From Candidatus Melainabacteria bacterium 17Bon1m (GTDB taxonomy: Bacteria > Cyanobacteriota > Vampirovibrionia > Obscuribacterales > Obscuribacteraceae): a stretch of 64,000 nt of DNA. The translations under genes were made by a program, and so were the position numbers. The notes beneath the pieces are model-generated. The model was not told the DNA's origin. It saw only the letters and a program-made list of their open reading frames with translations, and made no database searches. The stretch is from positions 65,008 through 129,007 of the forward strand of contig JAVLKG010000003.1 in the NCBI GenBank assembly GCA_032128875.1. Reading direction: 5' to 3'. Shown here one piece after another: positions 37,299-55,467 of this stretch (position 1 is the first letter of the stretch; each line of letters opens with the position of its first letter).

Positions 37299-37662
37299 GT
37301 CCGGCTAAGCAAAAGCGTTTTGGCTATGGGTAGCGCAAGCTGCGCTTGCCGAGTGCTGCGCAAAATGCTTTGCATTACGACACAGAAAATCAATATGACA
37401 AAAGGTTGCATGCGGCTCCCTAAGCTAGTTCGCGTGTCCGAGATTCTTTTCGTTTTATTGCGCGTTTCGACCTTTTTGGTCTCCCTAGCCGGGCAATGCT
37501 AGGTTTCAACCTCAGTTTTTACTTCTGCCCACTGGAAACATACCGACCCCCGAATCAAATAGCCGCTTCGATTTCAGCCCATTTGCCTTGTCGCATTTGA
37601 GATGGAATAGAAGCCGCCGTTTGATTTCAGGGACGTCAAGAGACCTCAACCAGGAAAACCAC

Positions 37663-39519
37663 ATGACAGAAACACATTCCACGTCCACCACACTCGTCGA
37701 ACACAAAAGTTTGAACGAGTGGATCTCGCAGGTTGCCGCTCTCTGCAAGCCCGATCGCATTCATGTCTGCGACGGCTCTCAAGCTGAGGCGGACAAGCTC
37801 ACTGCCGAGATGGTGGTCAGCGGAACTCTCATCCCTCTTAATGCCGAAATTCGCCCGAACAGCTTTCTGGCGCGCTCGGATATCTCGGATGTCGCCCGCG
37901 TGGAGGAACGCACCTTCATCTGCACCAATCAGCCCGAAGAGGCTGGCCCAACCAACAATTGGATGCATCCCACTGAGGCCAAGGAGACTCTTGCAAGACT
38001 TTTCGACGGCTGCATGCGCGGTCGTGTCATGTACGTCATCCCGTTCAGCATGGGACCGCTCGGCTCGAAGATCTCACACATCGGCGTCGAAATCACCGAC
38101 TCGCCTTATGTCGTCGTCAGCATGCGGCTGATGACGCGCATGGGCAAAGCGGTGATGGACGCACTCGGCGCGGATGGGGAATATGTTCCCTGCTTGCATT
38201 CTGTCGGCAAGCCGCTCGCTGCTGGTGAGAAGGACGTCGCATGGCCTTGCAATGCGGAGACGAAGTATATCTGCCACTTCCCCCAGTCGCACGAGATCAT
38301 CTCCTACGGCTCGGGATACGGTGGCAACGCGCTGCTCGGCAAAAAGTGTTTTGCCTTGCGCATTGCTTCGGCGATGGCGCATCAGCAAGGCTGGCTGGCG
38401 GAGCACATGCTCATTCTCGGACTCGAGTCGCCTCAAGGTGTGAAGAAGTACATCGCATGCGCTTTCCCGAGCGCCTGTGGCAAGACCAATCTGGCCATGC
38501 TGGTTCCGCCTAAGGGACTGGAAGGCTGGAAGGTGACGACGGTAGGAGACGACATCGCCTGGATCAAACGCGGCGAGGACAATGTGTTGCGGGCGATCAA
38601 TCCCGAAGCCGGCTATTTTGGCGTGGCACCGGGCACTTCGGCGAAGACCAATCCCAATGCGATCGCTTCTCTTCGTAGCGATTGCATTTTCACGAACGTG
38701 GCGATAACGCCGGAAGGTGATGTCTGGTGGGAAGGTCTCACCGACACGCCTCCAGCTCGCCTCATCGACTGGCAGGGTAATGACTGGACGCCGGATTGTG
38801 GACGCAAAGCCGCTCATCCGAACGCCCGCTTCACGGTTGCTGCGACTAATTGCCCGTCTCTGGATGAGAACTGGGACAACCCCGCTGGTGTGCCGATCAG
38901 CGCTTTCGTCTTCGGTGGTCGTCGACAGACGACGGTACCGCTGGTGGTGCAGGCGTACAGCTGGCGCGACGGCGTGTACATGGGCGCTACGCTCGGCTCC
39001 GAGACCACTGCTGCGGCTGCTGGTGCGGTCGGACAGGTGCGCCGCGACCCGATGGCCATGCTCCCCTTTTGCGGCTACAACATCGGCGATTATTTCGCGC
39101 ACTGGCTGTCCGTTGGCGACAGCATCGAGAACAGCGTGGTGGACGGCGAAGAGAGCGCGCTGCCGCAGATCTTCTGCGTCAACTGGTTCCGCAAGGACCA
39201 GAACGGCGACTTCCTCTGGCCTGGCTACGGCGAAAACATGCGTGTCTTGAAGTGGATCTTCGAGCGCACATCGGGAGTCGGCGGTGCCGAATCTTCGGAA
39301 CTCGGATTCCGTCCGCGCTTCGACGACCTGGACTGGAGCGGTTTCCCTGCTCCGGATGAAGGGCGTTTTGCAGCGTCCATCAAAATCGATGCTGCCGAGT
39401 GGCTTCAGGAGCTGGAGCTGCAGCGGGAATTCTTCGCCAAGGTCGGCAAGCATCTTCCTGCCACTTTCACTTCCATCTTGGAGCGCCTGGAGATGCGCTT
39501 CCAGCCGAAAAAGACGTGA
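37663..39519 (+). CDS. pckG: phosphoenolpyruvate carboxykinase (GTP)
   Basis: [75 protein letters not shown] at 37663 after agga. Confidence 0.97.
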
Positions 39520-39739: not shown

Positions 39740-40543
39740 TTAGAACCGAAGCGCAGGCAAGTCTCTGGTGAGGTCGAGAACGAGCACGCCGACAGCGCGG
39801 AAGCGCGGCAGCTGCTCGAACTCATCATCGACAAACTCTTCACGCTTCGGAGCGTCAGCACCCCAGAGAGACTGAACAATCGAGAGCTTGAGCTTCCACT
39901 CTTCTGCCGAAGCATCGATGCCGAAACGCTTTTGACGTTCGATTCCGTTGTCTTCGTCGAAGATGGGTCCAAGCTGTTCGTTGTCCAGACCTTCCGCATC
40001 CCAGACCAGGTCGATGTCGCTGGGCTTTGGCTTGCTGCTTACGAAGCTGCCGGCAATCGTCACCTTCTTGCACCCTGCCGCCTTCAGCATCGTCAGCGCC
40101 TCGTGGAGGAGCTTCAGCTGCGATTTGCGGTGAGTGTTGAAGGCGAGCTTGTCGACGAATTCTTCGAAGGTAACATGCCAGAATCCAGGCGGCAGCGTGC
40201 CCCATTCGGAAAGCGCCGGGAAACGCATTCCCTCAGGACGGGCAATTCCTTCCACGCGGCTGGGATCGAGTGTGCGGTGTACTTGCAGGTACTGCTTGAT
40301 CTCGAAAACCAGTGCTTCGCGAGCTTGCTTTCCCGCCTCCGTGTGGCGCATGTTGCGTGGCACCATGCGCGCAGCCAAGAACACCTTGCGAAGAATCGCA
40401 TCCGGCGCCTTGATTGCGATGAACATCGAACCAGCGACGCAGAGAAGGCGTCTGTAACTCAAGCGATCGAGCCAGGCATCCTGCGCTGGACGATCACTCA
40501 GTGGAACTAACTTCCGTGTTTTTTCCATATCGTAAACATCCAT
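39740..40543 (-). CDS. DUF6932-like nucleotidyltransferase-fold protein with N-terminal extension
   Basis: GTLPPGFWHVTFEEF..IAGSFVSSKPKPSDIDLVWD (GS...DxD motif of the pol-beta superfamily). Confidence 0.75.
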   Translation of the reverse strand: MDVYDMEKTRKLVPLSDRPAQDAWLDRLSYRRLLCVAGSMFIAIKAPDAILRKVFLAARMVPRNMRHTEAGKQAREALVFEIKQYLQVHRTLDPSRVEGIARPEGMRFPALSEWGTLPPGFWHVTFEEFVDKLAFNTHRKSQLKLLHEALTMLKAAGCKKVTIAGSFVSSKPKPSDIDLVWDAEGLDNEQLGPIFDEDNGIERQKRFGIDASAEEWKLKLSIVQSLWGADAPKREEFVDDEFEQLPRFRAVGVLVLDLTRDLPALRF

Positions 40544-41787: not shown

Positions 41788-42279
41788 TCAGTTTGGAAAG
41801 AAAAACCTATAATCGTTTTCATCATTTCCTGGACGAATCAGGACCAATTTCCCTTCCTCGCGGGTAGGGCGACCACCCCTACCGATGGTCGAATGCATTT
41901 TGGCAACGATGTCTTCAGGCACCATCCGCCCGCGGTTCTTGTTTCTTGTTATGCAAACTTGCAGAGGCGTTTCCATTACCCAAAGTTGAACATCGGCATA
42001 CTCAAACTTTTTGGCGCGGTCGAGAATTTCTTTTCGGTGCAGAGGGTTCGCGTTGGTGTTGTCGATTATCAGATCTGCGCCGTCCGCCATCAACTTTTCC
42101 ATGCACTCGAAAAAAACTTTGAACACTTCCGCCGGATCGCCTTGCTCAACTGCGTCTCCGTAGAGTTCTGCGCGGATGGCGTCGGCGCACAAGATGGTAA
42201 AACCCTTCTCTGCAATCTTGGCTGCCAGCGTAGATTTACCTGAGCCGGGCACTCCGATAAGAAGAATAATTCGCTTCAC
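41788..42279 (-). CDS. P-loop kinase (AAA_33 / polynucleotide-kinase-like)
   Basis: LLIGVPGSGKSTLA, ADAIR, IIDNTN, RNKNRGRMVPEDIV. Confidence 0.88.
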   Translation of the reverse strand: MKRIILLIGVPGSGKSTLAAKIAEKGFTILCADAIRAELYGDAVEQGDPAEVFKVFFECMEKLMADGADLIIDNTNANPLHRKEILDRAKKFEYADVQLWVMETPLQVCITRNKNRGRMVPEDIVAKMHSTIGRGGRPTREEGKLVLIRPGNDENDYRFFFPN

Positions 42280-42749: not shown

Positions 42750-44108
42750 CTATTTTGAACTGGCGCAAACTTCTTGCACGCGCTTTGCGGCTCGTTCTTT
42801 GTCGAAGTAGACAATCTTGCCGTCGAAGATGGTGACGAGGTTTTTGCCCTTGAGAGAACGACCGGTGAATGGTGAATTTTTGCTCTTGGAAAAACTCTCG
42901 ACAATCTCGAAATTCCAACGCATTTCAGGATCGACTATGGCGATATTGGCGCGTGCGCCGACGGAAATTTGTGGAGCAGGGATGCCCAAGATTTTTGCAG
43001 GGTGTGTCGTTATCAGCGCAAGAAACTTGTTTGGAGCCATTTTGCCTGAGAGGACGAGCTTTTCAAAACATAATGAGAATGCCGTTTCCAGCCCGATTAT
43101 ACCGAAGGGTGCATGATCGAAAGGTTTGCTCTTGTCCAATTTTGAATGCGGCGCATGATCCGTCGCAATTGCGTCGATTACGCCTTCGACGAGCGCTTGT
43201 TCGATTGCTTCGACGTCCTTCTTCGAACGTAATGGAGGGTTCATCTTGAACGAAGTATCGTATGGAGTCATCTCGGCATCGCTCAAAACCAAGTGGTGTG
43301 GCGTTGCGTCAGCGGTGACTTGAAGTCCTTGAGCCTTCGCCTGACGAATCAAATCAATCGAAGCTTTCGCGGATGTGTGGGCAAAGTGCAGGCGCCCACC
43401 CGTATAACGCAGAACTTCAATTTCACGTGCTACGCATGCAGCTTCACTTGCAGAAGGAATTCCTTTCATGCCAAGGCAGGTAGACTGGCAGCCTTCGTTC
43501 ATCGAGCCGCCGTGCGAGAGATCTTTGTCTTCGGGGTGACTGATGATCGGTCTTCCGTGCAAACGTGCATATTCAAAAGCGCGACGCAGTACATCGAGGT
43601 TCGAAATAGGCATGCCGTCATCAGAAAAAGCGATGGCACCCATGTCGGACATCTCGACCATATTGGTCAGCTCAACACCCTTTAGCCCTTTGGTAACTGC
43701 AGCGACAGGCAGTACTTCAACAATGGCTCGCTCGTGAATGCGTTTTATCACTCGGTCGAGAATTTCCGCACAATCAGTGGGCGGGTCAGTGTTCGCCATG
43801 GCGACAACGGTTGTATAACCGCCTGCTGCCGCGGCTTTTGTGCCGGTGGAAATGTCTTCTCTGTCCGCTTGCCCGAGGTCACGCAGATGGGTGTGCATGT
43901 CGACGAATCCCGGCATCACCCAGCATCCTTGTGCATCTACCACTGATTCGTTGTCTTTCGGCTTGAGTTCGCTCTCCATCTCAGTAATCTTGCCGTCCCG
44001 AATGCGAATGTCGAGACTTTGATTACTGGCGACATTGCTGCTTGCTTTGCCGTTTGCATCAGTAGGATTAATTACTCGTCCGTTCTTAATGAGAATCGCG
44101 CTTTCCAT
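42750..44108 (-). CDS. pyrC: dihydroorotase
   Basis: PGFVDMHTHLR, AAAAGGYTTV, FSDDG, KMNPPLR, IATDHAPH, APFGIIGLETA; adjacent to pyrB. Confidence 0.96.
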   Translation of the reverse strand: MESAILIKNGRVINPTDANGKASSNVASNQSLDIRIRDGKITEMESELKPKDNESVVDAQGCWVMPGFVDMHTHLRDLGQADREDISTGTKAAAAGGYTTVVAMANTDPPTDCAEILDRVIKRIHERAIVEVLPVAAVTKGLKGVELTNMVEMSDMGAIAFSDDGMPISNLDVLRRAFEYARLHGRPIISHPEDKDLSHGGSMNEGCQSTCLGMKGIPSASEAACVAREIEVLRYTGGRLHFAHTSAKASIDLIRQAKAQGLQVTADATPHHLVLSDAEMTPYDTSFKMNPPLRSKKDVEAIEQALVEGVIDAIATDHAPHSKLDKSKPFDHAPFGIIGLETAFSLCFEKLVLSGKMAPNKFLALITTHPAKILGIPAPQISVGARANIAIVDPEMRWNFEIVESFSKSKNSPFTGRSLKGKNLVTIFDGKIVYFDKERAAKRVQEVCASSK

Positions 44109-44119
44109 TAGTTTGTCCC

Positions 44120-45163
44120 CTATGCATCTTGGCCGTCATACATGAGCAAGTACAAAACCGCCATTCTTACGGCGATGCCGTTGGCAACCTGAAGGTTTAC
44201 GAGAGAAACTTTCGAATCGTCGACGAGGTCATCGGTGATTTCGATGCCTCTATTGACCGGTCCTGGGTGCAAAACCCGCACGTCCGGCTTGCAGCGTTTG
44301 ATGCGCTCGTGATCGAGCCTGTAAAGCCGTTTGTATTCGCCGATGCTTGGTATGAGTCCTTCGTCTTGACGCTCTAGCTGTAATCTCAGAGCAATGACAA
44401 AATCTGCATCCTTTATGGCAGGTTCTAACTTCTCATGCACGGTCACGCCGAAACTGTCGAGTTCAACAGGTACTAAAGTCGGCGGTCCGGCAACATGGAT
44501 ATCGGCGCCGAGTTTTTGCAGCAACCAGATGTTCGAGCGCGCCACGCGGCTATGCGTGATGTCGCCGATGATTGCCACTTTGCGGCCTTTGATGGTTTTA
44601 CCTGTCTCCTGCATACTGAAGAGGTCCAGCAATGCTTGCGTGGGGTGGGCATTCCATCCGTCCCCTGCATTGAGAACGTGAACTTCATCTCTCAAAAGTT
44701 CTGCCAGTTTGTGTGCGCTGCCGGAAGAGCTGTGGCGCTGTACAACAGCATCTACGCCCATTGACACCAGTGTTCGCGCAGTGTCTTCGATCGTCTCGCC
44801 TTTTGCAACCGACGACATCCGAATGTCCAGGTTTAAAACAGAGGCTCCCAACTTTCGTGCTGCAAGTTCAAAGCTGCTGCGGGTTCTCGTTGAATTTTCG
44901 TAGAACAAATTAGCCACTACTTTATGGCTGAGCACCGTCAGTGGTGGTCGCCCTTTTGAGTGGATGTCTTTGCAGAGCTTTGCGACAGCGATAAGCGCAT
45001 CGACTTCTTCGCCGCTCATGTCCTTGGTGTCGAGCAAGTGGCGGCGCGCTTTCCAGGCGTTTAGCCCAGGAAGGTTATCCGGCAATACTAAGTTTGAATC
45101 TTTTTCGTCCGCCATTTTTTTCTTTGTGCTTTTTTCCACTGCAAGTGAAGATGCGTCTGACAT
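44120..45163 (-). CDS. pyrB: aspartate carbamoyltransferase catalytic subunit
   Basis: FYENSTRTRSSFE, NAGDG..HPTQALLD, GDITHSRVARSN, LRLQLERQ, HPGPVNRG. Confidence 0.97.
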   Translation of the reverse strand: MSDASSLAVEKSTKKKMADEKDSNLVLPDNLPGLNAWKARRHLLDTKDMSGEEVDALIAVAKLCKDIHSKGRPPLTVLSHKVVANLFYENSTRTRSSFELAARKLGASVLNLDIRMSSVAKGETIEDTARTLVSMGVDAVVQRHSSSGSAHKLAELLRDEVHVLNAGDGWNAHPTQALLDLFSMQETGKTIKGRKVAIIGDITHSRVARSNIWLLQKLGADIHVAGPPTLVPVELDSFGVTVHEKLEPAIKDADFVIALRLQLERQDEGLIPSIGEYKRLYRLDHERIKRCKPDVRVLHPGPVNRGIEITDDLVDDSKVSLVNLQVANGIAVRMAVLYLLMYDGQDA

Positions 45164-45391
45164 TTAGCGAGTCCGCTCCTGTGAGAACCTGCGAAAGCGT
45201 TAGCAGGACTGTATTTTAAAGGTATTGAAGCCTCTGTTCTTTTGCAAAGAAGTAAATGTGCTGAGTTTGATTCGTTAATTCAAATTCACCTAGATGAAAT
45301 ATCGCTTGTCATCCGGCTTTTCCGGGTTACACTCATGTGACTGGTAACTCCGTTCTGGCGATTCTCTTACATGAGATGCGGAGGGCAATAC

Positions 45392-45595
45392 ATGGAAAAT
45401 GCGACCAAATCGCAAGTTTGCGACGATGTAAGTCGAGCGAATTACGCTAACAGACTTTTATCGCGCGCTATTCACGAAAGGCGCAAGCCTGAGACTGTGA
45501 CAGGTCGATTTTTCGGTATGTTTGCAAAAAGCGAGAAAGCAATCGCACAGGCAGAGGATGACAGCAAGGTTCTGGTTGGCGCGGGACAACGCTGA
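45392..45595 (+). CDS. small hypothetical protein (67 aa)
   Basis: ATG at 45392 after ggaggg; MENATKSQ... Confidence 0.55.
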   Translation: MENATKSQVCDDVSRANYANRLLSRAIHERRKPETVTGRFFGMFAKSEKAIAQAEDDSKVLVGAGQR

Positions 45596-45666
45596 GTAGT
45601 CGGGCATTTAAGCGACTGCATTTAGACAACTGGATCTAGACAACTGAAGGATTAGTGTTAAATGCG

Positions 45667-45686
45667 ATCCACCCCACCGGGGGGAT
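45667..45686. promoter_or_regulatory. putative CsoR/RcnR operator
   Basis: atccaccccaccggggggat: a C-tract/G-tract pseudo-palindrome ~75 nt upstream of the csoR-family gene. Confidence 0.6.
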
Positions 45687-45758
45687 TGGTTGAACTCGCC
45701 CGCGAGTTCTGCTTTTATTTGTTCATAGCAAACCCACATATGTTTAGGCGGTAAATGC

Positions 45759-46109
45759 GTGGCTATCACAGGCGACACAAAGCGTCAGCTCAGGTCCCGT
45801 TTGGTCAAAGCACAGGGACACCTGTCAGCGGTCATACGCATGATTGACGACGAAAAATATTGCATCGATGTTTTAACTCAGCTCAAAGCAGTTCAAGCTG
45901 CTCTCGATAAAACAGCGCATCTGATGCTGAAGCAGCATTTGGATACTTGCGTTGTCGAAGCCGTTAAGGCGGACGATTCTGCTCGTGTAATGAACGAACT
46001 CTGGCAACTCTTGCGTCGTGGTGAGTCCTCTTTCGAAGCCGAAGAAGAGGGCGAAGATCTGGAGGTAACAAAGTCCCAGCAGAAACCGCATACTCAGTGC
46101 TGTCATTGA
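45759..46109 (+). CDS. csoR: CsoR/RcnR-family metal-sensing repressor
   Basis: RLVKAQGHLSAVIRMIDDEKYCIDVLTQLKAVQAAL..QHLDTCV (Cys-His-Cys ligand set); tail HTQCCH. Confidence 0.9.
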   Translation: MAITGDTKRQLRSRLVKAQGHLSAVIRMIDDEKYCIDVLTQLKAVQAALDKTAHLMLKQHLDTCVVEAVKADDSARVMNELWQLLRRGESSFEAEEEGEDLEVTKSQQKPHTQCCH

Positions 46110-46180
46110 GTTTGCAATCTTCAATTTCTCTTGTTTGGTGAGAATTTAGCAGGTCCCCTCGTCCTTTCTGGAGGATTTTT

Positions 46181-46348
46181 ATGCAACCATGTTGTTGTTG
46201 GACCGCATTTTTCAATTCTGTTGTACAAATGCTCCCGTTTTTAGCTGTTTTCGGTATTGTCGGCGAGAGATTTCTCAAAACGTTTTCGAGACCAAGTCCA
46301 AAACCTGTTGAGGAGGTCGTCACCCCGTGTTGTGGGGATGTCCACTAA
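46181..46348 (+). CDS. 55-aa Cys-rich single-TM microprotein (below the ORF-track cutoff)
   Basis: Strong SD ggagga 5 nt before the ATG. Translates as MQPCCCWTAFFNSVVQMLPFLAVFGIVGERFLKTFSRPSPKPVEEVVTPCCGDVH; the stop is 3 nt before the next ORF. Confidence 0.7.
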   Translation: MQPCCCWTAFFNSVVQMLPFLAVFGIVGERFLKTFSRPSPKPVEEVVTPCCGDVH

Positions 46349-46351
46349 GTT

Positions 46352-47302
46352 TTGAGATCGGTAAAACACAGAAATTTCGTAACTGCCGTCGCTGCTTTTT
46401 CATGCAGCATCATCCCACTGGCAATTTCACCCGCCCATGGCGAAACACCTCTATCCGGCAACGCTGGAGTTAAGAAGGTTTTGCCGGGCGGTTCTGTGTC
46501 TGGGCGTGGCGACAAATTTCAACTTGCTGTCGGCGAACGTGATCGTTGGACTCCGAAAATTCAAGCGAATCCCAAAGACCCCAAGAATTATGTTGGGCGC
46601 GCAAAAGATTACATGTTGCTTTGCGAGGATGAGAAGGCGCTTGCTGATTTTTCTACCGCGCTTTCTCTCGACCCGCGCAACAGAGAAGCGCTTCACGAGC
46701 GAATTCTTTTATTGGGCGACCTGGGGCGAAAAGAAGAAGCGCTGCGAGATTGCAACACTCTGATCAAGGCATATCCGAAGTCGACTTTTGGCTACGAGCA
46801 TAGGTGTATCGTTTATCAGAGCATGCAGAAGTTGAAAGAGGCGCTTGCTGACACTGACGCGGCGCTAAAGATAGAACCGAATGCCGTCACCGTTTGGCAA
46901 TACCGATGCTCGATTTTCATTAATCAAGGTGATTCGGCTGGCGCTCTAAAGTGTCTGACTCGGCTCACTGAGCTGTGTCCCGATAATTCAACGAATTTTT
47001 CAGTGCGTGCCAATTACTACGTGAAACGTAAGGAGTATTCGAAAGCCATTGCTGATTTGACTCAAACAATCAAACTGCGGCAAGGAGAGTTCGAGCCGTT
47101 TATCATGCGTGCTGAGGTGTTCAAAGAAATGAAGGAGTACAAGAAAGCCATTGCCGATTACACTCGAGCAATCGAGATGAACCGATTTCGTGCCGGCTAT
47201 GCGTACAAAGGCCGTGGCGAATGCTATAAGGCATTGGGTGATGGCGCTGCTGCGCAGCGAGATTTCGTGCAGAGCAAAAGTGGAGAGAAGGCATATCGCT
47301 GA
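46352..47302 (+). CDS. exported tetratricopeptide repeat protein
   Basis: Signal-peptide-like N-terminus; TPRs such as FIMRAEVFKEMKEYKKAIADYTRAIEM. Confidence 0.88.
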   Translation: MRSVKHRNFVTAVAAFSCSIIPLAISPAHGETPLSGNAGVKKVLPGGSVSGRGDKFQLAVGERDRWTPKIQANPKDPKNYVGRAKDYMLLCEDEKALADFSTALSLDPRNREALHERILLLGDLGRKEEALRDCNTLIKAYPKSTFGYEHRCIVYQSMQKLKEALADTDAALKIEPNAVTVWQYRCSIFINQGDSAGALKCLTRLTELCPDNSTNFSVRANYYVKRKEYSKAIADLTQTIKLRQGEFEPFIMRAEVFKEMKEYKKAIADYTRAIEMNRFRAGYAYKGRGECYKALGDGAAAQRDFVQSKSGEKAYR

Positions 47303-47313
47303 GTTTGGTTTTT

Positions 47314-49131
47314 TTACCGAACAACCAATTTGGGAAGCCTTATCATAAAACTGAATCCGCTAGGCTTCTGGCTGTATGAGCTGATGTTGCCGTAATGCGC
47401 TTCAACGATTTGTTTGCAAATTGAATATTTAAGAAGAGACCGGTTGCTGTGCCCGCTTAGTTTGTGCGTGGGAACGCTCGATTCTATTTGAGCGATTTCC
47501 TCGTCGGTGAGCCCTTCTGCCTGGTCGACAATTCTTACTTGGACAATATCTGCAATTTCGGTAACTTCTATGCGAATGATTGTGTCGCTCGGCGCTGCCT
47601 TTATCGCATTCTCTAGTGATGCTGTAATCGCTTGTGTCATAAGGCGTTTGTCCACATTTACGGTGGCGTCGCCGGAAATATCGAATTTGATATTTTTTGC
47701 TTCGGCGCTTATTTCCGTATTTGAAACCGCCTTCTGCAAGAGTTCGTTCAGCATAGTGGAGGCAGGCTCTGTCTCGATGTTTCGCGCGCTAAGTTTTTGG
47801 AAATCCAACAGGTCACTTACCAATTCGATTAATTGCTCGACCATCTTTGCAGACTTTTCTACCTTGAGTTTTGCATCGGGCGGAAGCGCTCCCTTCGCTC
47901 CTCTCGAGAGAATTGCCAGTGAGATGTTGACAGATGTCAGAGGACTTCTCAGATCGTGGCTGATCATATCGACAAGATCTTGCTTCATCCTTTCTGCGTT
48001 TTTCGTTTCTGTAATGTCGTGTGCGACGCAGAAAAAGGCCTTCTGTGCATCAGACCAGAAGCATGACCAGCGTGTATCAACTACGTCCTTGGAATCACTC
48101 ACTAGTCGCAGATCGAAAACACTGATGTTGGTGGAAGTTCTCGACTCTCTCAGCTTTTCATCGCAGAAAAAGCTCTCGTCCGGGATCGTCAAATCATGTA
48201 AATTTCTTCCGATGAGTTCTTCGGGGCTATAGCCCAGTATGCGGGTCGCGTATGGGTTGGCACTGATGAAGGCGCCATCTTCAGTGAGTGAACAAATGAG
48301 ATCGGTGGCGTTTTCCACCAGTGTTTTTTCGTCTTGCTGAATCTTGTCGAGAGCCGCGGCCGTCGAGTGAAGCAGCCTGTCTAGCGTGGCCAACTCATCT
48401 GTGCCTGTCAGGGCTGGCGGCAGTGGTTGCCCTTTTGCCAACAACATACCGTTGCGACAAGTCAGCCGGAGCGGGCGTTTGACCAATACTATGTACATGT
48501 AGCCGAGTAGCGCAGCCAGCAAGGCGCTCAGAACAAGCGCAACAACCAGCGTAGCCCAGACCCTGCTAAGCAAATCGTGAATCAGTGCAGGTCTTCTGGC
48601 TTGCCGCTCTTCTTCCAGCTCGACTATCGCTGTTGTGGCGGCGGCATACTGGCGGGCGCAGTTGAGGAAGCGATGAAAGTACTTTTGGCGTGAAGTAATA
48701 CGATCTTCATTGTCTTTGAAAGAGAGGTGCTGTGCATCTTTGTACATCTCTTGCAGCTCTTTATGGCAACTGCGCAACTCTTGCATTCTTTGCTCGGATT
48801 CGCTGTCCGTGCGGGCGACATTGAAGAGTCCCTGCAGGTTTTCGTTGAGAGCCTGAATCGGGTTGCTTTCGGTAGGCATTTTGGGAAGTAGCTTATACAT
48901 CACAGTCGGCGCTTCGAACTTGAAATTCAAGTTGTAGATGGTCTCCATAGCATCTCGGTTGAGGACGAATGTTCGGGCGATGATTTCTTGAGACCGTGAT
49001 TCTGTAACGATTTCGTTCTTCAGTGCGAGTAAGTTGTAAGCCAGAAAGACGACTATGATGACCTGCAGCAGCAAGGGGATCATCGTAATGATGATGCCGC
49101 GCCAGAATAGGTTGGGAGTAGGAATATTCAA
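47314..49131 (-). CDS. membrane PAS sensor histidine kinase with intact H-box and degenerate ATPase domain
   Basis: Two TM helices, HAMP-like and PAS regions, ISHDLRSPL. G1 reads DQAEG and there is no GxGLGL G2 box. Confidence 0.9.
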   Translation of the reverse strand: MNIPTPNLFWRGIIITMIPLLLQVIIVVFLAYNLLALKNEIVTESRSQEIIARTFVLNRDAMETIYNLNFKFEAPTVMYKLLPKMPTESNPIQALNENLQGLFNVARTDSESEQRMQELRSCHKELQEMYKDAQHLSFKDNEDRITSRQKYFHRFLNCARQYAAATTAIVELEEERQARRPALIHDLLSRVWATLVVALVLSALLAALLGYMYIVLVKRPLRLTCRNGMLLAKGQPLPPALTGTDELATLDRLLHSTAAALDKIQQDEKTLVENATDLICSLTEDGAFISANPYATRILGYSPEELIGRNLHDLTIPDESFFCDEKLRESRTSTNISVFDLRLVSDSKDVVDTRWSCFWSDAQKAFFCVAHDITETKNAERMKQDLVDMISHDLRSPLTSVNISLAILSRGAKGALPPDAKLKVEKSAKMVEQLIELVSDLLDFQKLSARNIETEPASTMLNELLQKAVSNTEISAEAKNIKFDISGDATVNVDKRLMTQAITASLENAIKAAPSDTIIRIEVTEIADIVQVRIVDQAEGLTDEEIAQIESSVPTHKLSGHSNRSLLKYSICKQIVEAHYGNISSYSQKPSGFSFMIRLPKLVVR

Positions 49132-50909
49132 TTCGCTGCGCTCCCTTTGAATTTCGGCAAGTCGATGTAAAAACAGCTGCCCCCAATCTGCATCGGCTTG
49201 TATCCGGCTGTTCCACCGTGCGCTTCTGCGATTGATTTCACGAGCGCCAGACCCAATCCGCTGCCCTTTATCTTTGTTTTGTTGACGGATTCGCTTTGGT
49301 TAAACTTCGTGAAAATGAGTTCTCTGTCCTTCTCAGGAATGCCTGGTCCCTGGTCGATAACGCTGATGGTGACAGTGTTAGTGCCTTCTTTGATGTCGAG
49401 AGTAACCGTTGAATTTTTGGGTGAAAACTTAATTGCGTTCGAAAGCAAATTGATCAGAGCTTGTATTAAGCGTCCTTGGTCACCAATAGCGGTGGCATCG
49501 TTTGTGGATTGAACTATCTCAATCGCGTTAGAAGTCGCCAGGGCTTCAAGCGTGAGGCGCGCTTGTCGGCATAGTTCTGATGCGCTTATTGGAAGTTTTT
49601 CAATGTCTCGATCGGCTGTTTCTACATCTTCTAAATCAAGCAGTTCCGATACAAGATCCGATAGGCGCATGAGGTTGTAATTCGCCTTGGCCAGCTCTTC
49701 TTGCGCTGCTTGTGGGATGTTTGCGTGGTTTTCGTTGACGATTGAACCAATGAGCGAGTTGACTTCTTTGAGCGGTGAGCGAAGCTCTTCACTTGCCGTG
49801 TTGAGGAACTGTTGTTTCAAGCGTTGTGCGGCTTTCATCTCGGAGATGTTGTGGGCAACACAGAAATAACTTGCTTGTTCTTTCGAGTAAGAAACCTTCC
49901 AGAGAAATGGTTGTACCGTTCCATCTTTTCGTTTTACATCGTTCTCAAATTCGCATTCACCTGCTGTTTCAGCCAGCTTGCTCAGATTTTGCCGAGCTGC
50001 TTCTTGCGTGTCCTCGGTGATTATGGAAATCAACGAAAGTCCCAAAAGTTCATCCGGAGAGTAAAGCCAGACCTTACTGGCTGCATCTCCCACTGTGATG
50101 AAGCGCAGGCGAGCATCCAAGGTGCAAAGAACATCGCGTGCATTGTCTAAGATCGCGAACTGTTTTTGCCGTGCTTGCTTTATCTCTGTGTGTGCTTGCA
50201 GGAGAACTTTATCTAGCTCGGCAAGCTCGTCGTTGCCGTCAATGGGCGGCGGCAAATCGCGCCCGCCAGCCAAAAGAAGCGCCTTGTTAGCGACATTGCT
50301 CAGCCTGTTGAGAAAACCGGCAGTGAAGTCGCGAACCAGCCAGAGTGAGATGAGAAAGCCGATTGCTGCGCCGCTTGCAAGGATGATGCCTAGCTTCCAG
50401 GTCAGACTTTCAATCTGCCCCGTGTCGGAATTGAGCATGTCGGTTTCGACTTCGATTATGCGCTTGCTGAGCGGTCTTACTTCCATAAACATCGTTATTG
50501 TTGATGCTTTCGGCAGCAGCTTGCCGGCTGGCAAAGTTCGTCCCATGTGCTGGTACAGGCGCAGGCGCACTTGTTTTAACACAGCAATCAAATTGACTCT
50601 AGCGGACTCCGAGTCTCTAATAATGGCGTTCAGCTCTGGGTGTTCGATGGAATTTGCCGTAGTCCACGGAATTTCCAGAGCGCGTATGAGCATGTCTATA
50701 TCGGCGATTTTCTTCTCTGCGTGCGAGTCTTCTTCCTGCGCCAGAGCAAGCAGAGCATCTTCTGCGACCTTTTCGAAATGATGTAACTGAATAAGCGCAT
50801 GCCTGGATCTCTCGAGGCGTTCGTACTCTTTGGTCGCCTCGTATAGCCTGTTTCCCACAATGCCAAGAAAGACAAGCTCAATTACGACTGGTACCAATAC
50901 CAGTATCAT
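49128..50909 (-). CDS. membrane PAS sensor histidine kinase lacking the phospho-His, with intact ATPase domain
   Basis: Two TM helices, HAMP-like and PAS regions, ASEELRSPL (H to E), NLLSNAIKFS, DQGPGI, IFTKF, GSGLGL. The true start may be a few codons upstream. Confidence 0.9.
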   Translation of the reverse strand: MILVLVPVVIELVFLGIVGNRLYEATKEYERLERSRHALIQLHHFEKVAEDALLALAQEEDSHAEKKIADIDMLIRALEIPWTTANSIEHPELNAIIRDSESARVNLIAVLKQVRLRLYQHMGRTLPAGKLLPKASTITMFMEVRPLSKRIIEVETDMLNSDTGQIESLTWKLGIILASGAAIGFLISLWLVRDFTAGFLNRLSNVANKALLLAGGRDLPPPIDGNDELAELDKVLLQAHTEIKQARQKQFAILDNARDVLCTLDARLRFITVGDAASKVWLYSPDELLGLSLISIITEDTQEAARQNLSKLAETAGECEFENDVKRKDGTVQPFLWKVSYSKEQASYFCVAHNISEMKAAQRLKQQFLNTASEELRSPLKEVNSLIGSIVNENHANIPQAAQEELAKANYNLMRLSDLVSELLDLEDVETADRDIEKLPISASELCRQARLTLEALATSNAIEIVQSTNDATAIGDQGRLIQALINLLSNAIKFSPKNSTVTLDIKEGTNTVTISVIDQGPGIPEKDRELIFTKFNQSESVNKTKIKGSGLGLALVKSIAEAHGGTAGYKPMQIGGSCFYIDLPKFKGSAAN

Positions 50910-51046
50910 TCCTCGGGCTGTCGAATTGAATTGCAGGAGTATCGATCCCGTCTAAGGTTGCCGTTCGGAAACGCTGGAAAGCCAAGAGCCGACCGCGCCT
51001 CGATTCTATGATACAGGCAACTGGGCGAAGATTCGGATGTTGCAGA

Positions 51047-51787
51047 TTAATAGCCGACGACCGAGCCGCGAATGTGGCGAGTATTATCCATGCCTGCTGC
51101 GCGCATCATGCCGCCCACTCCGCCATTTCCGACGAAGAGTCCAAACAATGCCGCTGCGCCTGCTACGCCGACCGCGCGTTGCATCATTTGTGGATCGTTC
51201 ATAAGCGTATTGCCGATGGTCTGGGCGATTCCACCGTTGTTGCTGTTTGTGCCATTGTTTTGCATCATGCCGCCAGCCATGTTGTTCATGCCGTTTTGCT
51301 GCATCATGCCGCTGGACATGTTATTCATTCCACTGTTGGAACCGCTGAACATGCCGCTGTTCATATTATTCATGCCGTTCATGACGTTCATCTGTGCAGA
51401 ACCGTTCATGCTGTTCATACTGTTTGTGCCATTCATAGAACTCGTCGCATTGCTGCTTCCATTGTTCATGGCTCCGTTGCCGAATGCATTACCTTGACCG
51501 AGTTGTGTATTTTGGCTGTTGAGGTTGGTATACAGCCCGTTTTGGGATAGGCTGTTGTTGAATGCGCCATTGGCGTTTGAGTTAAAACCCTGTCCAGGCG
51601 CGCCATTGGGGCTAGGGGCGGTTGGCGAGCCAAATGAATCCCCGCAAATGTCGATACCGTTGAAGTTCTGCGCGGCAACTTGCTCTTCGGCGGTTAGTTG
51701 ACCATTGACTCCTTGAGCTAATGCAGGCGTGTTCATCGCCAGCGAGGCGAGAAGCATTGCTGCGGCTGTTCGAGTGCGGACTGACAT
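51047..51787 (-). CDS. exported low-complexity Asn/Met/Gly-rich protein
   Basis: ATG at 51787 after ggaga; signal peptide ending PALA; repeats such as MNGTNSMNSMNG and MMQQNGMNNM; hydrophobic Gly-rich C-terminus. Confidence 0.82.
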   Translation of the reverse strand: MSVRTRTAAAMLLASLAMNTPALAQGVNGQLTAEEQVAAQNFNGIDICGDSFGSPTAPSPNGAPGQGFNSNANGAFNNSLSQNGLYTNLNSQNTQLGQGNAFGNGAMNNGSSNATSSMNGTNSMNSMNGSAQMNVMNGMNNMNSGMFSGSNSGMNNMSSGMMQQNGMNNMAGGMMQNNGTNSNNGGIAQTIGNTLMNDPQMMQRAVGVAGAAALFGLFVGNGGVGGMMRAAGMDNTRHIRGSVVGY

Positions 51788-51951
51788 GGTAATTCTCCGG
51801 AGGTGCCAGGAGATCGTATTACTCGCGCGCGCGTCCGTCACTGGTGGAAGTACGTACTTGCGAGCTGGCTTGTACGGGAGTCGCATCCGGCCCCATGGCA
51901 GGGAAGCGCGGACCGCCGGCACGAGCGCTTCCCGTACACAACGGAAGTGAA

Positions 51952-52686
51952 CTATTTCTTCTCTTGCAAATGCGAAAGATACTCGACGATTGAGTCGACT
52001 TGTTCTTTCGCCAACGGACCACCGGCGTCTCCTATAAAACCAGGCATGGTGATTTTTCTGGGGCTGCCGTAGGCCGTTACGTGCCACACGTGCTTCTTGA
52101 TGGCTGGGTCGTTGTAGTCGCGCACGAGGCAAGGGCCGACTCCTCCTTGTGCATCTTGTCCATGACACATGGCGCAATCTGCCTTGTAGAGCTCTTCTCC
52201 GAAAAGTCCAACTCCTTGTGCGACGTGGCAACTGGTGCACTTTTCGTCAGTGAGAAACTTTGCTTTGCTGCGCTCTGAGAGCGCCTTGTGACGGTTTTCC
52301 ACGACCATTGACATAGAGAGAATCACAAGTGGTCGCTCAGGATCGTCTGATGAAATATCTACTGTTTTGGTGATCTCGTCTTGTTTCATCGAGGTGTCCA
52401 ACTGCACTGTCAGAGTTGTTGATTCACCCGGGTTCAAAAGCGTCTTTGGCAGTTTTGGAACGGTGCAGCCACATGTTGAGTAGGCTTTGATTATTTGAAG
52501 GGGCTCAGTACCCTTGTTGAATATCTTGAATTTGTGCTCCAGCTCTATGCCTTCTGCCACGTGACCGAAGTCGAACTCTTCATGGTCGAACGTAATTTGC
52601 GCGCCATTCGCGGGCGGTTTTGGCTTCTCTTCTGCGCATGCGGAGAGAAGAGCAAAAGTGCATATCGCGATCAGAAACTTCCTCAT
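51952..52686 (-). CDS. lipoprotein with DUF1573-like Ig domain and two c-type heme motifs
   Basis: Lipobox LSAC; FDFG..FKIFNKGTEPLQI..STCGCT..LNPGES; CTSCH and CAMCH; MPGF. Confidence 0.85.
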   Translation of the reverse strand: MRKFLIAICTFALLSACAEEKPKPPANGAQITFDHEEFDFGHVAEGIELEHKFKIFNKGTEPLQIIKAYSTCGCTVPKLPKTLLNPGESTTLTVQLDTSMKQDEITKTVDISSDDPERPLVILSMSMVVENRHKALSERSKAKFLTDEKCTSCHVAQGVGLFGEELYKADCAMCHGQDAQGGVGPCLVRDYNDPAIKKHVWHVTAYGSPRKITMPGFIGDAGGPLAKEQVDSIVEYLSHLQEKK

Positions 52687-52817
52687 TCACCGATGATATG
52701 TGCAAGCGGGGCGCCCCGCAACCCTGGGTCGGGGAGGCAAGACAGCGTGCTTGTGCTGGGAGTATCCTTTGGTTTAATTCGAGGATACTAAACGGACTAA
52801 TAGAATTTAGGCTTAAA

Positions 52818-52847
52818 GGAAACTGGCTCAGGGGGGAGCCAGTTTCC
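52818..52847 (-). terminator. hairpin terminator
   Basis: ggaaactggctc-aggggg-gagccagtttcc downstream of the 52905 stop. Confidence 0.6.
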
Positions 52848-52904
52848 GATGGTTTCACTCAAAGCAGCACAAGAAGCGGTGCTTCCTGCGTTGTCTGTAT
52901 CGAG

Positions 52905-53612
52905 TTACTTCCCGCAGAGCGGATCCGGGGTTTCGCCGTGATGCTCATGATGCGGCATGGGGTGCGACATCGGCGAGCATGGCTGAGACTGGACCGGAGC
53001 CACGGTGCTGCCGTGATGTGCATGACCCGGCATCAGTAATGCGGGGAAAAGCGACATCAGGAGCATGACGACGCCCATCGAAAGATGCGCGAGGTCGGAA
53101 GTGAACGAGAGGCTCTTGCCGGCGCGTGCGTCGAGGACGGCGTCCTTGACGTAATAGCCGGAGAACCAGGTCCAGAAGAGCAGCATGGCGCCGTTGAAGA
53201 GCGTGAGCAGGAGCGGGCTGAGCGCAAGCGGCTGGAACATGGTGAACATGCCCAGAAACATCGCCGAGTGCGTCCAGTCCCACCACTGCTTGTTGTACGA
53301 CAGGCGCTTGCCCCAGGTCATGGCGCGCGCGGCGTAGTACACAGTACCGAAGCCGAGAATCCACGACCACGCAAGAGCGGGGACGGGAATCAGCCAGGCA
53401 GCCAGATGGCTAGCCATCGCCAGCATGCAAACGAAGTGCCCCGCTTCGCCTTCCCAGTCGAAGAAGCCGATGGCGTTCTTGACCATGGAGGGGCGGAAGA
53501 GGCGATAGAGATAGAAACCGGCGAACCCGAGGAAGAGTAAGCCGACGGAAGTGATCAACCATTCGGGCGAGGTGAAAGCACCAGCGTCCGGCATGTGATG
53601 CGTATGGTCCAT
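52905..53612 (-). CDS. His/Met-rich membrane protein (DUF5134-like)
   Basis: ATG at 53612 after aaggag. Intramembrane H-x-x-M-type motifs (GHFVCMLAM, THSAMFLGM, AHLSMGVVM); His-rich termini. Confidence 0.75.
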   Translation of the reverse strand: MDHTHHMPDAGAFTSPEWLITSVGLLFLGFAGFYLYRLFRPSMVKNAIGFFDWEGEAGHFVCMLAMASHLAAWLIPVPALAWSWILGFGTVYYAARAMTWGKRLSYNKQWWDWTHSAMFLGMFTMFQPLALSPLLLTLFNGAMLLFWTWFSGYYVKDAVLDARAGKSLSFTSDLAHLSMGVVMLLMSLFPALLMPGHAHHGSTVAPVQSQPCSPMSHPMPHHEHHGETPDPLCGK

Positions 53613-54231
53613 TTGAGTCTCCTTGGTCACGTAGTTGTGCGCACTTGCAAGAGCGAGTGCACAGCAGGAGTTCGATAGCTAATTCAGGGACACACTCAGA
53701 TGCACGTGCTACGGGCGCGTGACAAAGTCTCTAAAGTCGAATGAGGAGAAACCTCTGAGTGTTTTTGATTCCTGAGTGATGAAAAAGAAAGATGAGGACT
53801 AAAACTGGCAGATACGGCAGACGTTTCGCTACTTGGCAGGGTTGTTGTTAAGAGGTTGTCGCCCTGGCTGGAGTGCAGTGTATGCGGCAACTGATGGCAG
53901 TCTTGCGTAAGTTGACTAACTGATTAAGTGACGGGAATTTCGTCTAAACTGCGCACAACCGGCTCGCAGAGCTGTATGAGCCTATCCCCGGGAGGGGGTT
54001 GTTATCACCAATTGCTTGCCGCTATTTGTTATTCCATAACTTGCCAAGCTTGAGCCGTTTGTGCCTGTCGAAAGTCGTCAGTTAATTTGGTTTGGAGGGC
54101 CACCGCATGTGGTGCTAGCACGTCTTGCGATTATGGCCCGTCCTGCAATGCAAATGGGTGTCGGCGCGACCTTCTGACCTTCTGTTACCTGGTGCTAGAA
54201 GAGATAGTAGCGTGAGTGCTTAGAAGAAAAG

Positions 54232-54331: not shown

Positions 54332-55306
54332 TTACGCAGCAGCCTCCGTCTCGCTTTCCAGCGGACGGCGGTACTTGTAGACGTGCACGGAGTTGATCAG
54401 CTGCGAGCCATTCTCGGGCAGGAAGGTATCCACCCAGGTCAAGCCGGGGATGCATGCTTCCATGTCCTCGAGGAGGTCATCAGCCGGTTCGTAGAGCAAA
54501 GCGCGCATGTTGACGGGGTCAACGCTGCGCACCAGGAAGGTCACTTCGTTGCCCGGAGCGACTTGCGACATGATGTTGAGCATCACGCGCTCCTTCTCCG
54601 TCACCATGCTGGCGATGAAGAAGGTGTCGAAGCCGGGCGGAACCACCAGATGGGCACCATCGACCTGGGTGACCTGCACGTGGTCCTGCATGCCGAGCTT
54701 GGTGAGTGCCTTCACCGCCTGAGCAGCCGCTTCCGGCTCCTTCTCGACGGAGAGAATCTGGAACGCGCTCGGCCAGTCGCGCCAGAATTCACGGTGGATG
54801 ACCTTCGTCAGCTGAGCTTCGGCCTGAGGATCGTTGTCGACAAGACAACGAGTCAGCTCGCCGAGCATGCCCTGCGCGCGCGCAGCCTGGACGATCGTCA
54901 GCACCAGCGGCGTCCACGGAAGCGGACCACCACCGACGAAAACGACGCGGCTGTTCGAGTTCAGGTTGGCCAGCTCGCTCTCCTTGAGCGCCAGCTTCAG
55001 ATAGTGGTCGATGTACGGGAAGTCCAGAACTCGGCCGGGGTCGCTGTAAAACAGCTCCAGCTGAAACTCGGCGCGCTGGCAAAGCGTGCGGAGGTCAGCG
55101 GTCACACCCGACTCGCTCAGGGCCTGTAGAGCGCGCCGCGCAGCCGCCTGATTGTGCGGCAGCGTGACGTATCGAACGAGTTCGGTCAGCTTCTGGTTGA
55201 CGATTGCGTTGCGCGGCGACAGGTCGGTCTGTCGTGCAAGCACATCGCGCGTTTCGGTAACGTGCGACACCAACTCGCAGAAGCGACGGTTTTGCCATCG
55301 TTTCAT
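54332..55306 (-). CDS. nicotianamine-synthase-like SAM-dependent aminobutanoyltransferase
   Basis: LSP..VNQKLTELV, AEFQLE, FPYIDHYLKL, VVFVGGGPLPWT, IASMV..K, RS..MRALLYEP, LINS; ATG at 55306 after aaggag. Confidence 0.85.
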   Translation of the reverse strand: MKRWQNRRFCELVSHVTETRDVLARQTDLSPRNAIVNQKLTELVRYVTLPHNQAAARRALQALSESGVTADLRTLCQRAEFQLELFYSDPGRVLDFPYIDHYLKLALKESELANLNSNSRVVFVGGGPLPWTPLVLTIVQAARAQGMLGELTRCLVDNDPQAEAQLTKVIHREFWRDWPSAFQILSVEKEPEAAAQAVKALTKLGMQDHVQVTQVDGAHLVVPPGFDTFFIASMVTEKERVMLNIMSQVAPGNEVTFLVRSVDPVNMRALLYEPADDLLEDMEACIPGLTWVDTFLPENGSQLINSVHVYKYRRPLESETEAAA

Positions 55307-55467
55307 GACTGTTCTCCTTATCATGAGTATTCCGATCGGGCACAGCTGTCGCCCAATGCGGTGAGTTACGTAAACGACATTTCACGCCCGATCGCGCGGC
55401 TTGCTTGCCACCTGCGACTCGTGCGTGAGATTCAGAGTTGGATTCAAATTTGCGATATCGAGAACTC

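Follow-up and report, generated by a model that had tools for sequence, protein, structure and literature searches.

What can a pair of sensor histidine kinases accomplish when each member has lost the part that the other has kept? The question is raised by two overlapping genes, here called HK-A and HK-B, in a 64,000-nucleotide (nt) stretch of the genome of Candidatus Melainabacteria bacterium 17Bon1m (contig JAVLKG010000003.1, positions 65,008 to 129,007 of the forward strand; hereafter the window, whose own numbering is used below). The genome (G000) comprises 7.55 Mb on 35 contigs and holds at least 129 kinase open reading frames (ORFs) and at least 150 receiver matches. Judging from the motifs of the two proteins, the conservation of these motifs and the state of their paralogs, HK-A and HK-B are probably the functional halves of one bipartite, two-protein sensor kinase.

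Both genes lie on the minus strand. HK-A (49128-50909) encodes 593 amino acids (aa) from an ATG start and HK-B (47314-49131) 605 aa from a TTG start, and the TGA stop of the former shares the tetranucleotide TTGA (49128-49131; tcaa on the plus strand) with the start of the latter. The two proteins have the same layout, namely two transmembrane segments enclosing an extracytoplasmic part of about 145 aa, followed by a HAMP-like linker and by PAS, DHp and catalytic ATP-binding (CA) domains; we refer to HK-A as 'upstream type' and to its paralog HK-B as 'downstream type'. Hydropathy places two hydrophobic segments in each (residues 1-23 and 169-193 of HK-A, about 12-39 and 186-215 of HK-B), with extracytoplasmic sensor regions between them at residues 24-168 (50406-50840) and about 40-185 (48577-49014), respectively. 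The PAS domains (PF00989) span residues 252-352 of HK-A (49854-50156; 26.1 bits) and 270-373 of HK-B (48013-48324; 44.7 bits). From the HAMP-like linker through the C-terminus the proteins are 30% identical over 384 aa (E = 7e-48); their extracytoplasmic parts do not align to each other, and neither sensor region matched a Pfam family even at E values up to 5 or an NCBIfam model above its cut-off. A first-pass annotation of the sequence had described the locus as two paralogous genes of the order transmembrane-sensor-transmembrane-HAMP-PAS-kinase, overlapping at these four positions and carrying unlike extracytoplasmic sensors, and this description was borne out by the ORFs, Pfam, hydropathy and alignment. 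The overlapping TTG start of HK-B appears real, because residues P6-G12, which precede the first internal Met, show no variation among 20 aligned sequences. The 4-nt overlap is present in all four genomes examined (this genome, G011, G005 and G001), and a second pair in G001 overlaps by 1 nt. Such an overlap suggests translational coupling, whereby both sensors would be made from one coupled message, co-transcription being read from the overlap itself.

Which functions does each protein retain? A canonical class I kinase combines HisKA and HATPase_c; HK-A lacks the H-box His, HK-B lacks CA boxes, and the pair jointly possesses both sets. The DHp-like helical hairpin of HK-A (residues 355-440; 49590-49847) carries Glu374 (codon GAA at 49788-49790, read directly) in place of the phospho-acceptor His, and because of this residue its HisKA match, at 20.2 bits, falls below the Pfam cut-off of 26.9. 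The CA domain of the same protein (residues 476-586; 49152-49484) scores 94.6 bits against HATPase_c, and its N, G1, F and G2 boxes are all intact. HK-B, in turn, has a HisKA/DHp domain (residues 382-449; 47785-47988; 47.2 bits) with His392 (codon CAC at 47956-47958, read directly) in a textbook H-box, the sole candidate phospho-acceptor of the pair. Its CA domain is degenerate (residues 494-601; 47329-47652; HATPase_c 47.3 bits): the F box is lost, and the G2 box, placed by motif alignment at about 47422-47442, has no glycine. The catalytic and phospho-acceptor parts are located on two polypeptides, as in a split kinase, the missing parts being disabled rather than absent. The earlier reading of HK-A, with Glu in the H-box and four intact CA boxes, agreed with motif alignment and Pfam; that of HK-B was right about the preserved H-box and the lost F and G2 boxes but went too far in describing the ATP pocket as wholly degraded, since the N-box Asn persists, as do the Asp and second Gly of G1, the full DxGxG being present in most orthologs.

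Of the 13 genomes of the genus, nine contain orthologous pairs, ten pairs in all, since G001 has two in tandem; in the other four genomes neither HK-A nor HK-B was found at the ortholog level. Near homologs come from metagenome-assembled genomes whose source names are Candidatus Melainabacteria or Obscuribacterales. Among the ten A-type orthologs the acceptor is never His (Glu in eight, Asp in one, Gln in one) and the four CA boxes are always kept, and all ten B-type orthologs have an invariant H-box, a glycine-less G2 box and no F box, with the N-box Asn kept in eight and DxGxG in the G1 box in six. A wide protein search, covering cluster representatives from a set of 5.8 billion proteins, gave the same result over a broader range: His was absent and the CA boxes were intact in 16 of 16 A-group representatives (45-99% identity; Glu in 12, Gln in 3, Ala in 1), and His together with a glycine-less G2 box was found in 19 of 19 B-group representatives (41-96% identity), again with the F box lost. 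At about 37% identity and lower, the database matches to HK-A are His-containing kinases of the ordinary sort.

We then calculated the ratio of non-synonymous to synonymous substitution rates (dN/dS) by the Nei-Gojobori method, G011 being the only comparison with unsaturated dS (0.1-0.5). Against this genome, dN/dS was 0.03, 0.06, 0.11 and 0.13 for the sensor, PAS, DHp and CA parts of HK-A, and 0.03, 0.05, 0.05 and 0.12 for those of HK-B. Remoter comparisons, in which dS exceeds 1 and many ratios are undefined through saturation, gave 0.04-0.16, except for one DHp value of 0.43 against G001. Over the comparisons, the His-less DHp domain of HK-A ranged from about 0.09 to 0.14 and the degenerate CA domain of HK-B from 0.09 to 0.12, which indicates that both of these 'dead' domains are maintained by purifying selection. 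In addition, the hairpin of HK-A keeps many invariant core Leu residues, and the degenerate G2 stretch of HK-B is itself nearly invariant. The first-pass annotation had proposed examining whether orthologous pairs keep both reciprocal losses under purifying selection, and they do, in all ten pairs and all 16 and 19 representatives. These data bear directly on one alternative, that HK-A and HK-B are decaying, functionless remnants of a duplicated kinase. Although both proteins are 'defective' by the canonical standard, their reading frames are open in nine genomes, dN/dS lies at 0.03-0.16 in every domain, the 'defective' ones included, and the altered G2 box has stayed nearly unchanged over a divergence that spans down to 41-45% identity; we therefore give this explanation almost no credence.

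Is this division of functions peculiar to one pair? A tree of 33 paralogs of about 600 aa from this genome contains an upstream-type clade, with HK-A, a protein here called C and four intact kinases (Shimodaira-Hasegawa-like approximate likelihood ratio test, SH-aLRT, 100), and a downstream-type clade, with HK-B, a protein D and four intact kinases (SH-aLRT 99). The six members of each clade are arranged in the genome as six overlapping upstream/downstream pairs, of which four are intact in both members (one on contig C11, one on C5 at 384-388 kb and two on C15). In the remaining pair, C/D (C5:96654-100318; locus L056:1154-4818), the losses are reversed: the upstream protein C has kept its His and lost all four CA boxes, and the downstream protein D combines an intact CA domain with Ser at the acceptor position. 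Consistently, Pfam matches are to HisKA only in C and to HATPase_c only in D. The C/D arrangement is kept in four more genomes (G007, G012, G009 and G005), with the pattern of C present in 5 of 5 sequences, the CA domain of D intact in 6 of 6, and the acceptor of D being Ser in four and Ala in one of the five sequences that cover the position. Approximately unbiased (AU) tests rejected a single clade for the His-less proteins A and D (p = 0.0007) and for the CA-dead proteins B and C (p = 0.0011), indicating that the losses in A/B and C/D have no common origin, a test weakened somewhat by the groups having been named after a quick tree was seen. When two His losses and two CA losses are placed at random on the 12 proteins, 60 of 2,970 arrangements (2%) yield two complementary pairs. 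A candidate explanation for Glu374, a specific role as a phosphomimetic of phospho-His, was rejected, since orthologs have Asp, Gln or Ala at this position and D has Ser or Ala.

The same partition is found in other genera. In G019, a member of a different genus, an upstream-type kinase with a Ser acceptor and an intact CA domain overlaps a partner that stops just after its His-bearing DHp domain, without any CA domain (L060:1073-4209, minus strand). In a third genus, G024 encodes a 1233-aa fusion of two full units (L061:1575-5273, minus strand), the first with a Phe acceptor and an intact CA domain and the second with His and a degenerate CA domain, so that the losses follow the A-then-B order; the same genome also has an intact 1239-aa fusion (L062:2695-6411, plus strand) and an intact adjacent pair. 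Together, the reversed pair C/D, the CA-less partner in G019 and the fusions with the same split lend good support, at the level of comparative sequence evidence, to HK-A and HK-B being functionally dependent on each other.

A census of the present genome extended this picture beyond the paired family. It covered 134 kinase modules in 129 ORFs of at least 250 aa, and modules were counted as partnered when they shared an ORF or belonged to same-strand neighbors at most 100 nt apart. Of 17 partnered module pairs, seven are complementary, comprising four fused proteins of 887-1003 aa (C1:32680-35691, C1:524832-527495, C12:35723-38725 and C18:14568-17552; loci L050-L053) and three adjacent pairs, including one at C16:10151-12636 (L054). 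All seven partnered modules that lack His and have an intact CA domain are accompanied by a module with His and no functional CA domain. Of the 31 partnered modules 15 have a single function, compared with 3 of the 103 unpartnered modules (Fisher p = 6e-9, a value that overstates independence because the paralogs are kin). In the C12-type fused family, module 1 lacks His and module 2 combines His with a dead CA domain in 37 of 37 homologs (41-100% identity), and in the next match, at 28% identity, both modules are intact. In pair C/D and the fused forms, the dead CA domain is stripped of every box or deleted. In a further pair, at C1:471151-474077 (L055), a His-bearing module whose CA domain is dead stands with a partner that has an intact CA domain and a His in an atypical H-box. 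A pattern search of genome contigs based on the family alignment returned 79 loci, which proved to be unrelated kinases from many phyla, picked up through generic N-box and PAS patterns; they were not used.

Could the two proteins nevertheless work side by side without exchanging phosphate? HK-A would then be a sensing or scaffolding pseudokinase or a binder of an ATP signal, and HK-B a phosphatase, a sink or a phosphotransfer protein charged by others. There are precedents for such behavior in the available text of two reports, namely RedE of Myxococcus (PMC2755868) and inhibitory kinase-kinase contacts of the RetS type (PMC12189002), and the genomic setting leaves room for it. With a home-made receiver hidden Markov model, which found 61 control matches in the genome, no receiver was detected in any six-frame ORF of at least 60 aa in the window, so that the earlier statement that no response regulator is adjacent holds for the window as a whole. 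Among the matches listed (150 of 213 candidates scored), the nearest PF00072 domain lies about 18 kb away, outside the window, and the conserved neighborhood of the pair in G011, G005 and G001 contains no response regulator either. With no cognate regulator near the pair, and with more than 100 kinases and at least 150 receiver matches in the genome, cross-wiring is possible. However, co-expression without exchange leaves unexplained why the losses are always reciprocal within pairs, in either gene order, why purifying selection preserves an intact catalytic site in HK-A, which has no acceptor of its own, and why single-function modules are nearly confined to partnered ones. We consider this explanation unlikely.

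It is also conceivable that each protein is a self-sufficient kinase, with HK-A using another acceptor residue and the altered pocket of HK-B still using ATP. HK-A does have an invariant histidine, His353, at the PAS-DHp junction, HK-B has kept its N-box Asn and G1 Asp, with DxGxG in the six orthologs mentioned above, and a second His of FasB in group A Streptococcus is left open in the available text of the FasB/FasC paper (PMC12675982). However, His353 is equally conserved in ordinary paralogs that have a normal acceptor His and is thus not a replacement acceptor. As for HK-B, the G2 box is without glycine in every ortholog and representative and the F box has disappeared, a G2 box substituted with Ala serves as the standard mutant that does not bind ATP (PMC4734776), and in pair C/D and the fused forms the corresponding CA domain has lost all its boxes or has gone altogether. 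Self-sufficiency of both proteins thus appears improbable, more so than co-expression without exchange.

If HK-A and HK-B are indeed halves of one kinase, how might they work together? HK-A would bind ATP and supply the only competent catalytic domain, and HK-B would supply His392, the one histidine of the pair that can be phosphorylated. Within a heteromeric complex, the CA domain of HK-A would reach His392 of HK-B and phosphorylate it, and the phosphoryl group would then pass from HK-B to a response regulator encoded elsewhere. In the likeliest geometry, an A hairpin and a B hairpin would together form a four-helix DHp bundle, and the unrelated extracytoplasmic domains would allow the output to depend on two inputs. 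Complex formation, the direction of phosphotransfer and this geometry are what we infer from the distribution of the losses. Within the bipartite arrangement, we lean slightly toward a heterodimer over a higher-order assembly, for instance one of homodimers. The first-pass annotation had proposed an obligate heterodimer acting as an asymmetric kinase or AND gate; its obligate partnership gained support from the conserved reciprocal losses, the reversed pair, the G019 pair and the fusions, and its geometry, phosphorylation in trans and gate logic stay at the level of proposals.

Indirect signs of an association of HK-A with HK-B are the conserved 4-nt overlap and the existence of fusions, and two analyses also bear on it. 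In the first, DHp residues were contrasted among 148 classified proteins (27 upstream-type, 69 downstream-type and 52 single). At core position 372, upstream proteins mostly have Ala (20/27), downstream proteins Ile (55/69) and singles Val (31/52); at 369 the commonest residues are Leu, Val/Ala and Val, respectively; and at 426 Leu is found in 27 of 27 upstream and Phe in 66 of 69 downstream proteins, with Ile, Leu or Met in singles. Furthermore, charges are swapped between the upstream and downstream types at positions 358, 367, 427 and 430. This reciprocal pattern of small versus large residues is suggestive of a heterospecific four-helix bundle. In the second, structure prediction of the complex between the DHp-CA parts of A and B gave an interface score (ipSAE) of 0.52 (0.50, 0.52 and 0.53 in separate runs) versus 0.00 for the best of three controls, which was graded as weak support. 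At least 59% of contacts recur between runs, and the predicted local distance difference test score (pLDDT) of the partner is at least 79. Of 157 solved complexes 116 reach the mark applied to ipSAE, as do 2 of 215 mismatches; 18 of the 157 and both mismatches do so with scores of 0.60 or below. Kinase homodimers exist as solved structures, so the pass may reflect mere likeness to them.

Several points weigh against the proposal that the two proteins form one kinase. The DHp contrasts could stem from clade history alone, and the complex prediction, weak and made for A with B only, cannot distinguish a heterodimer from a homodimer. The acceptor residue of the HK-A group drifts among Glu, Asp, Gln and Ala and hence has no fixed role. 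Given its remaining pocket residues, HK-B may conceivably retain some nucleotide binding. No regulator is encoded nearby. Since orthologs and paralogs are kin, the counts above overstate independence, and we estimate about five to eight independent events. Finally, if autophosphorylation in this family were to occur in cis, as in ArcB, a simple heterodimer would be precluded and another geometry would be needed.

As for the origin of the split, we infer an ancestral upstream/downstream pair whose members already cooperated and each of which then lost a function that its partner still supplied. It is tempting to extend this to the whole Obscuribacterales upstream/downstream family, intact pairs and fusions of about 1,200 aa included, as obligate heterodimeric two-sensor kinases, an extension that we regard as possible and rather doubtful. 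If true, A/B, C/D, the G019 pair and the G024 fusion would represent repeated, independent subfunctionalization inside a pre-existing heterodimer. They would be hard-wired asymmetric kinases in which phosphate moves one way, from the ATP site of one sensor to the histidine of the other, and the family would range naturally from intact pairs through half-dead ones of either polarity to fusions, a series suited to studying kinase asymmetry, the choice between cis and trans, and two-input logic.

What, then, surrounds the pair? Directly upstream of HK-A lies a gene for an Asn/Met/Gly-rich protein of 253 aa and no known family (51047-51808, minus strand), with orthologs in G011 (86% identity) and G005 (50%). 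Long His/Ala-rich and Pro/Phe-rich ORFs antisense to it (51008-51550 and 51072-51497, plus strand) are most likely artifacts of biased composition. A gene farther upstream (51952-52686, minus strand) encodes a DUF1573 and c-type cytochrome protein with a lipoprotein-like N-terminus. The same gene precedes the pair in G011, G005 and G001, where only 5 nt separate its end from the first kinase. ORFs of 240 aa upstream of the pair in G005 and G001, at one point suspected to be regulators, are these DUF1573-cytochrome c proteins. Convergent with HK-B is a gene for a TPR-repeat protein with an N-terminal hydrophobic segment (46352-47302, plus strand), conserved in G011 (96%), G005 (61%) and G001 (57%); a paralog of this gene is located at 36003-36992. 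Judging from the neighborhood, the DUF1573-cytochrome c protein is a possible co-sensor, and all three conserved neighbors may form part of the sensing apparatus. Farther out are a CsoR-type metal-sensitive repressor (45759-46109, plus strand), a His-rich membrane protein with a weak DUF5134 match (52905-53630, minus strand) and a nicotianamine-synthase-like protein (54332-55324, minus strand). From the conserved neighbors and the nearby CsoR-like repressor, our guess would be a redox or metal cue for the pair. An OmpR-type response regulator gene, divergent from pair C/D, lies next to that pair at L056:374-1069 on the minus strand.

Elsewhere in the window, the phosphoenolpyruvate carboxykinase gene (37588-39519) and the pyrB/pyrC genes (42750-45163) flank a DUF6932 protein (39740-40543, minus strand) and a small AAA_33/zeta-toxin-like P-loop kinase (41788-42279, minus strand). 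A promoter and terminator scan of 46000-53000 returned no promoter-like elements (shuffle mean 5.3) and 11 terminator-like ones (mean 8.9) and was uninformative. Four RNA-labeled runs of a plankton metagenome (X1-X4, from one sample of one study) were considered as expression evidence and set aside as uninformative on transcription: they carry 45000-53500 as flat-depth contigs of 13-37 kb that span genes of both strands, and thus look like genomic DNA, possibly from the source of this very assembly.

How new would such a kinase be? The literature searched, in which subscription journals were mostly uncovered, contained no account of transmembrane pairs of the HisKA type whose losses are reciprocal, nor of kinase pairs in Obscuribacterales. 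Split and heteromeric kinases are a known kind; what appears new here is their occurrence as class I membrane sensors with disabled domains, with repeated losses in both polarities and an intact, split and fused series within Obscuribacterales. Sensor histidine kinases are taught as homodimers, and to our knowledge natural heterodimers are rare; the precedents that we found are RetS-GacS, which is inhibitory, and FasB/FasC, for which genetic evidence dates from 2025. The present locus would add a class I family in which evolution has repeated the 'His-less plus ATP-less' complementation of EnvZ, several times over, in both gene orders and as fusions, the intact sister pairs of this genome serving as controls. 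Should biochemistry bear this out, the pair would allow one-way phosphotransfer within an asymmetric dimer to be studied cleanly, would test how a single kinase combines two unlike extracellular sensors, and would be a worked example of paralogous subunits becoming mutually dependent. It also carries a message for annotation, in that kinases without His or with a degenerate ATP site should not be called pseudokinases until the neighboring gene has been read.

Several known systems share features with HK-A/HK-B, each described here as in the available parts of the cited reports. RedE, of the RedCDEF system of Myxococcus, cannot autophosphorylate, takes phosphate from one response regulator and dephosphorylates another (PMC2755868). 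It resembles HK-B as a His-bearing transmitter that depends on other proteins for its phosphate; however, it is charged by a response regulator and not by the CA domain of a partner, and its HATPase_c domain is conserved and its HisKA domain poor, so that it serves as the model for co-expression without phosphate exchange between partners. RetS and GacS of Pseudomonas aeruginosa are, like HK-A and HK-B on our proposal, two sensor kinases in contact through their DHp domains (PMC12189002, PMC12675982). RetS, however, inhibits GacS, both also homodimerize, their genes are not adjacent and, as far as these texts go, they have no reciprocal losses.

A laboratory parallel is EnvZ, in which an H243A mutant and a G2-box mutant are inactive singly and autophosphorylate in the mix by trans-phosphorylation; ArcB, a cis kinase, fails the same mixing test (PMC4734776). 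The lesions are the same two as in our pair, which resembles a natural, fixed version of the experiment, yet the EnvZ proteins are laboratory mutants of one protein exchanging subunits, whereas HK-A and HK-B are diverged paralogs at 30% identity with different sensors. In Rhodobacter sphaeroides, CheA3 and CheA4 carry catalytic and acceptor functions on two proteins that are active only together, and the same report predicts that proteins with HisKA alone could be parts of split kinases; in SMART, HATPase is lacking from 1556 of 42417 proteins with HisKA (PMC3591291). CheA3 and CheA4 are, however, class II cytoplasmic proteins from which domains are wholly absent, whereas HK-A and HK-B are class I membrane sensors with disabled domains.

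A system similar in operation is FasB/FasC, of the three-component FasBCA system of group A Streptococcus. In a two-hybrid assay these proteins show hetero- but not homo-association, FasC requires His246 and not its kinase domain, FasB requires only its DHp and ATPase domains, and in the authors' model the FasB kinase domain phosphorylates the FasC histidine (PMC12675982, in the part available). As at our locus, the kinase-like genes are adjacent, one product giving the histidine and the other the kinase domain, co-transcription here being judged from the overlap. Yet FasB keeps a candidate His, so that the Fas losses, in the accessible account, are not shown to be reciprocal, unlike those of HK-A/HK-B, and the Fas locus encodes a ComE-like regulator, whereas our window has no receiver domain. 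The nearest NCBIfam models of HK-A and HK-B (PnpS, WalK and PhoR) all score far below their cut-offs. The Fas proteins belong to a different kinase family, not known to have a PAS domain or a HisKA-type H-box, whereas HK-A and HK-B are HisKA/PAS kinases with large domains outside the membrane, and their split recurs many times within one family, in both polarities and as fusions. By analogy, HK-A/HK-B would work like FasB/FasC yet is not a member of that system, from which it is set apart by family models rather than by direct sequence comparison.

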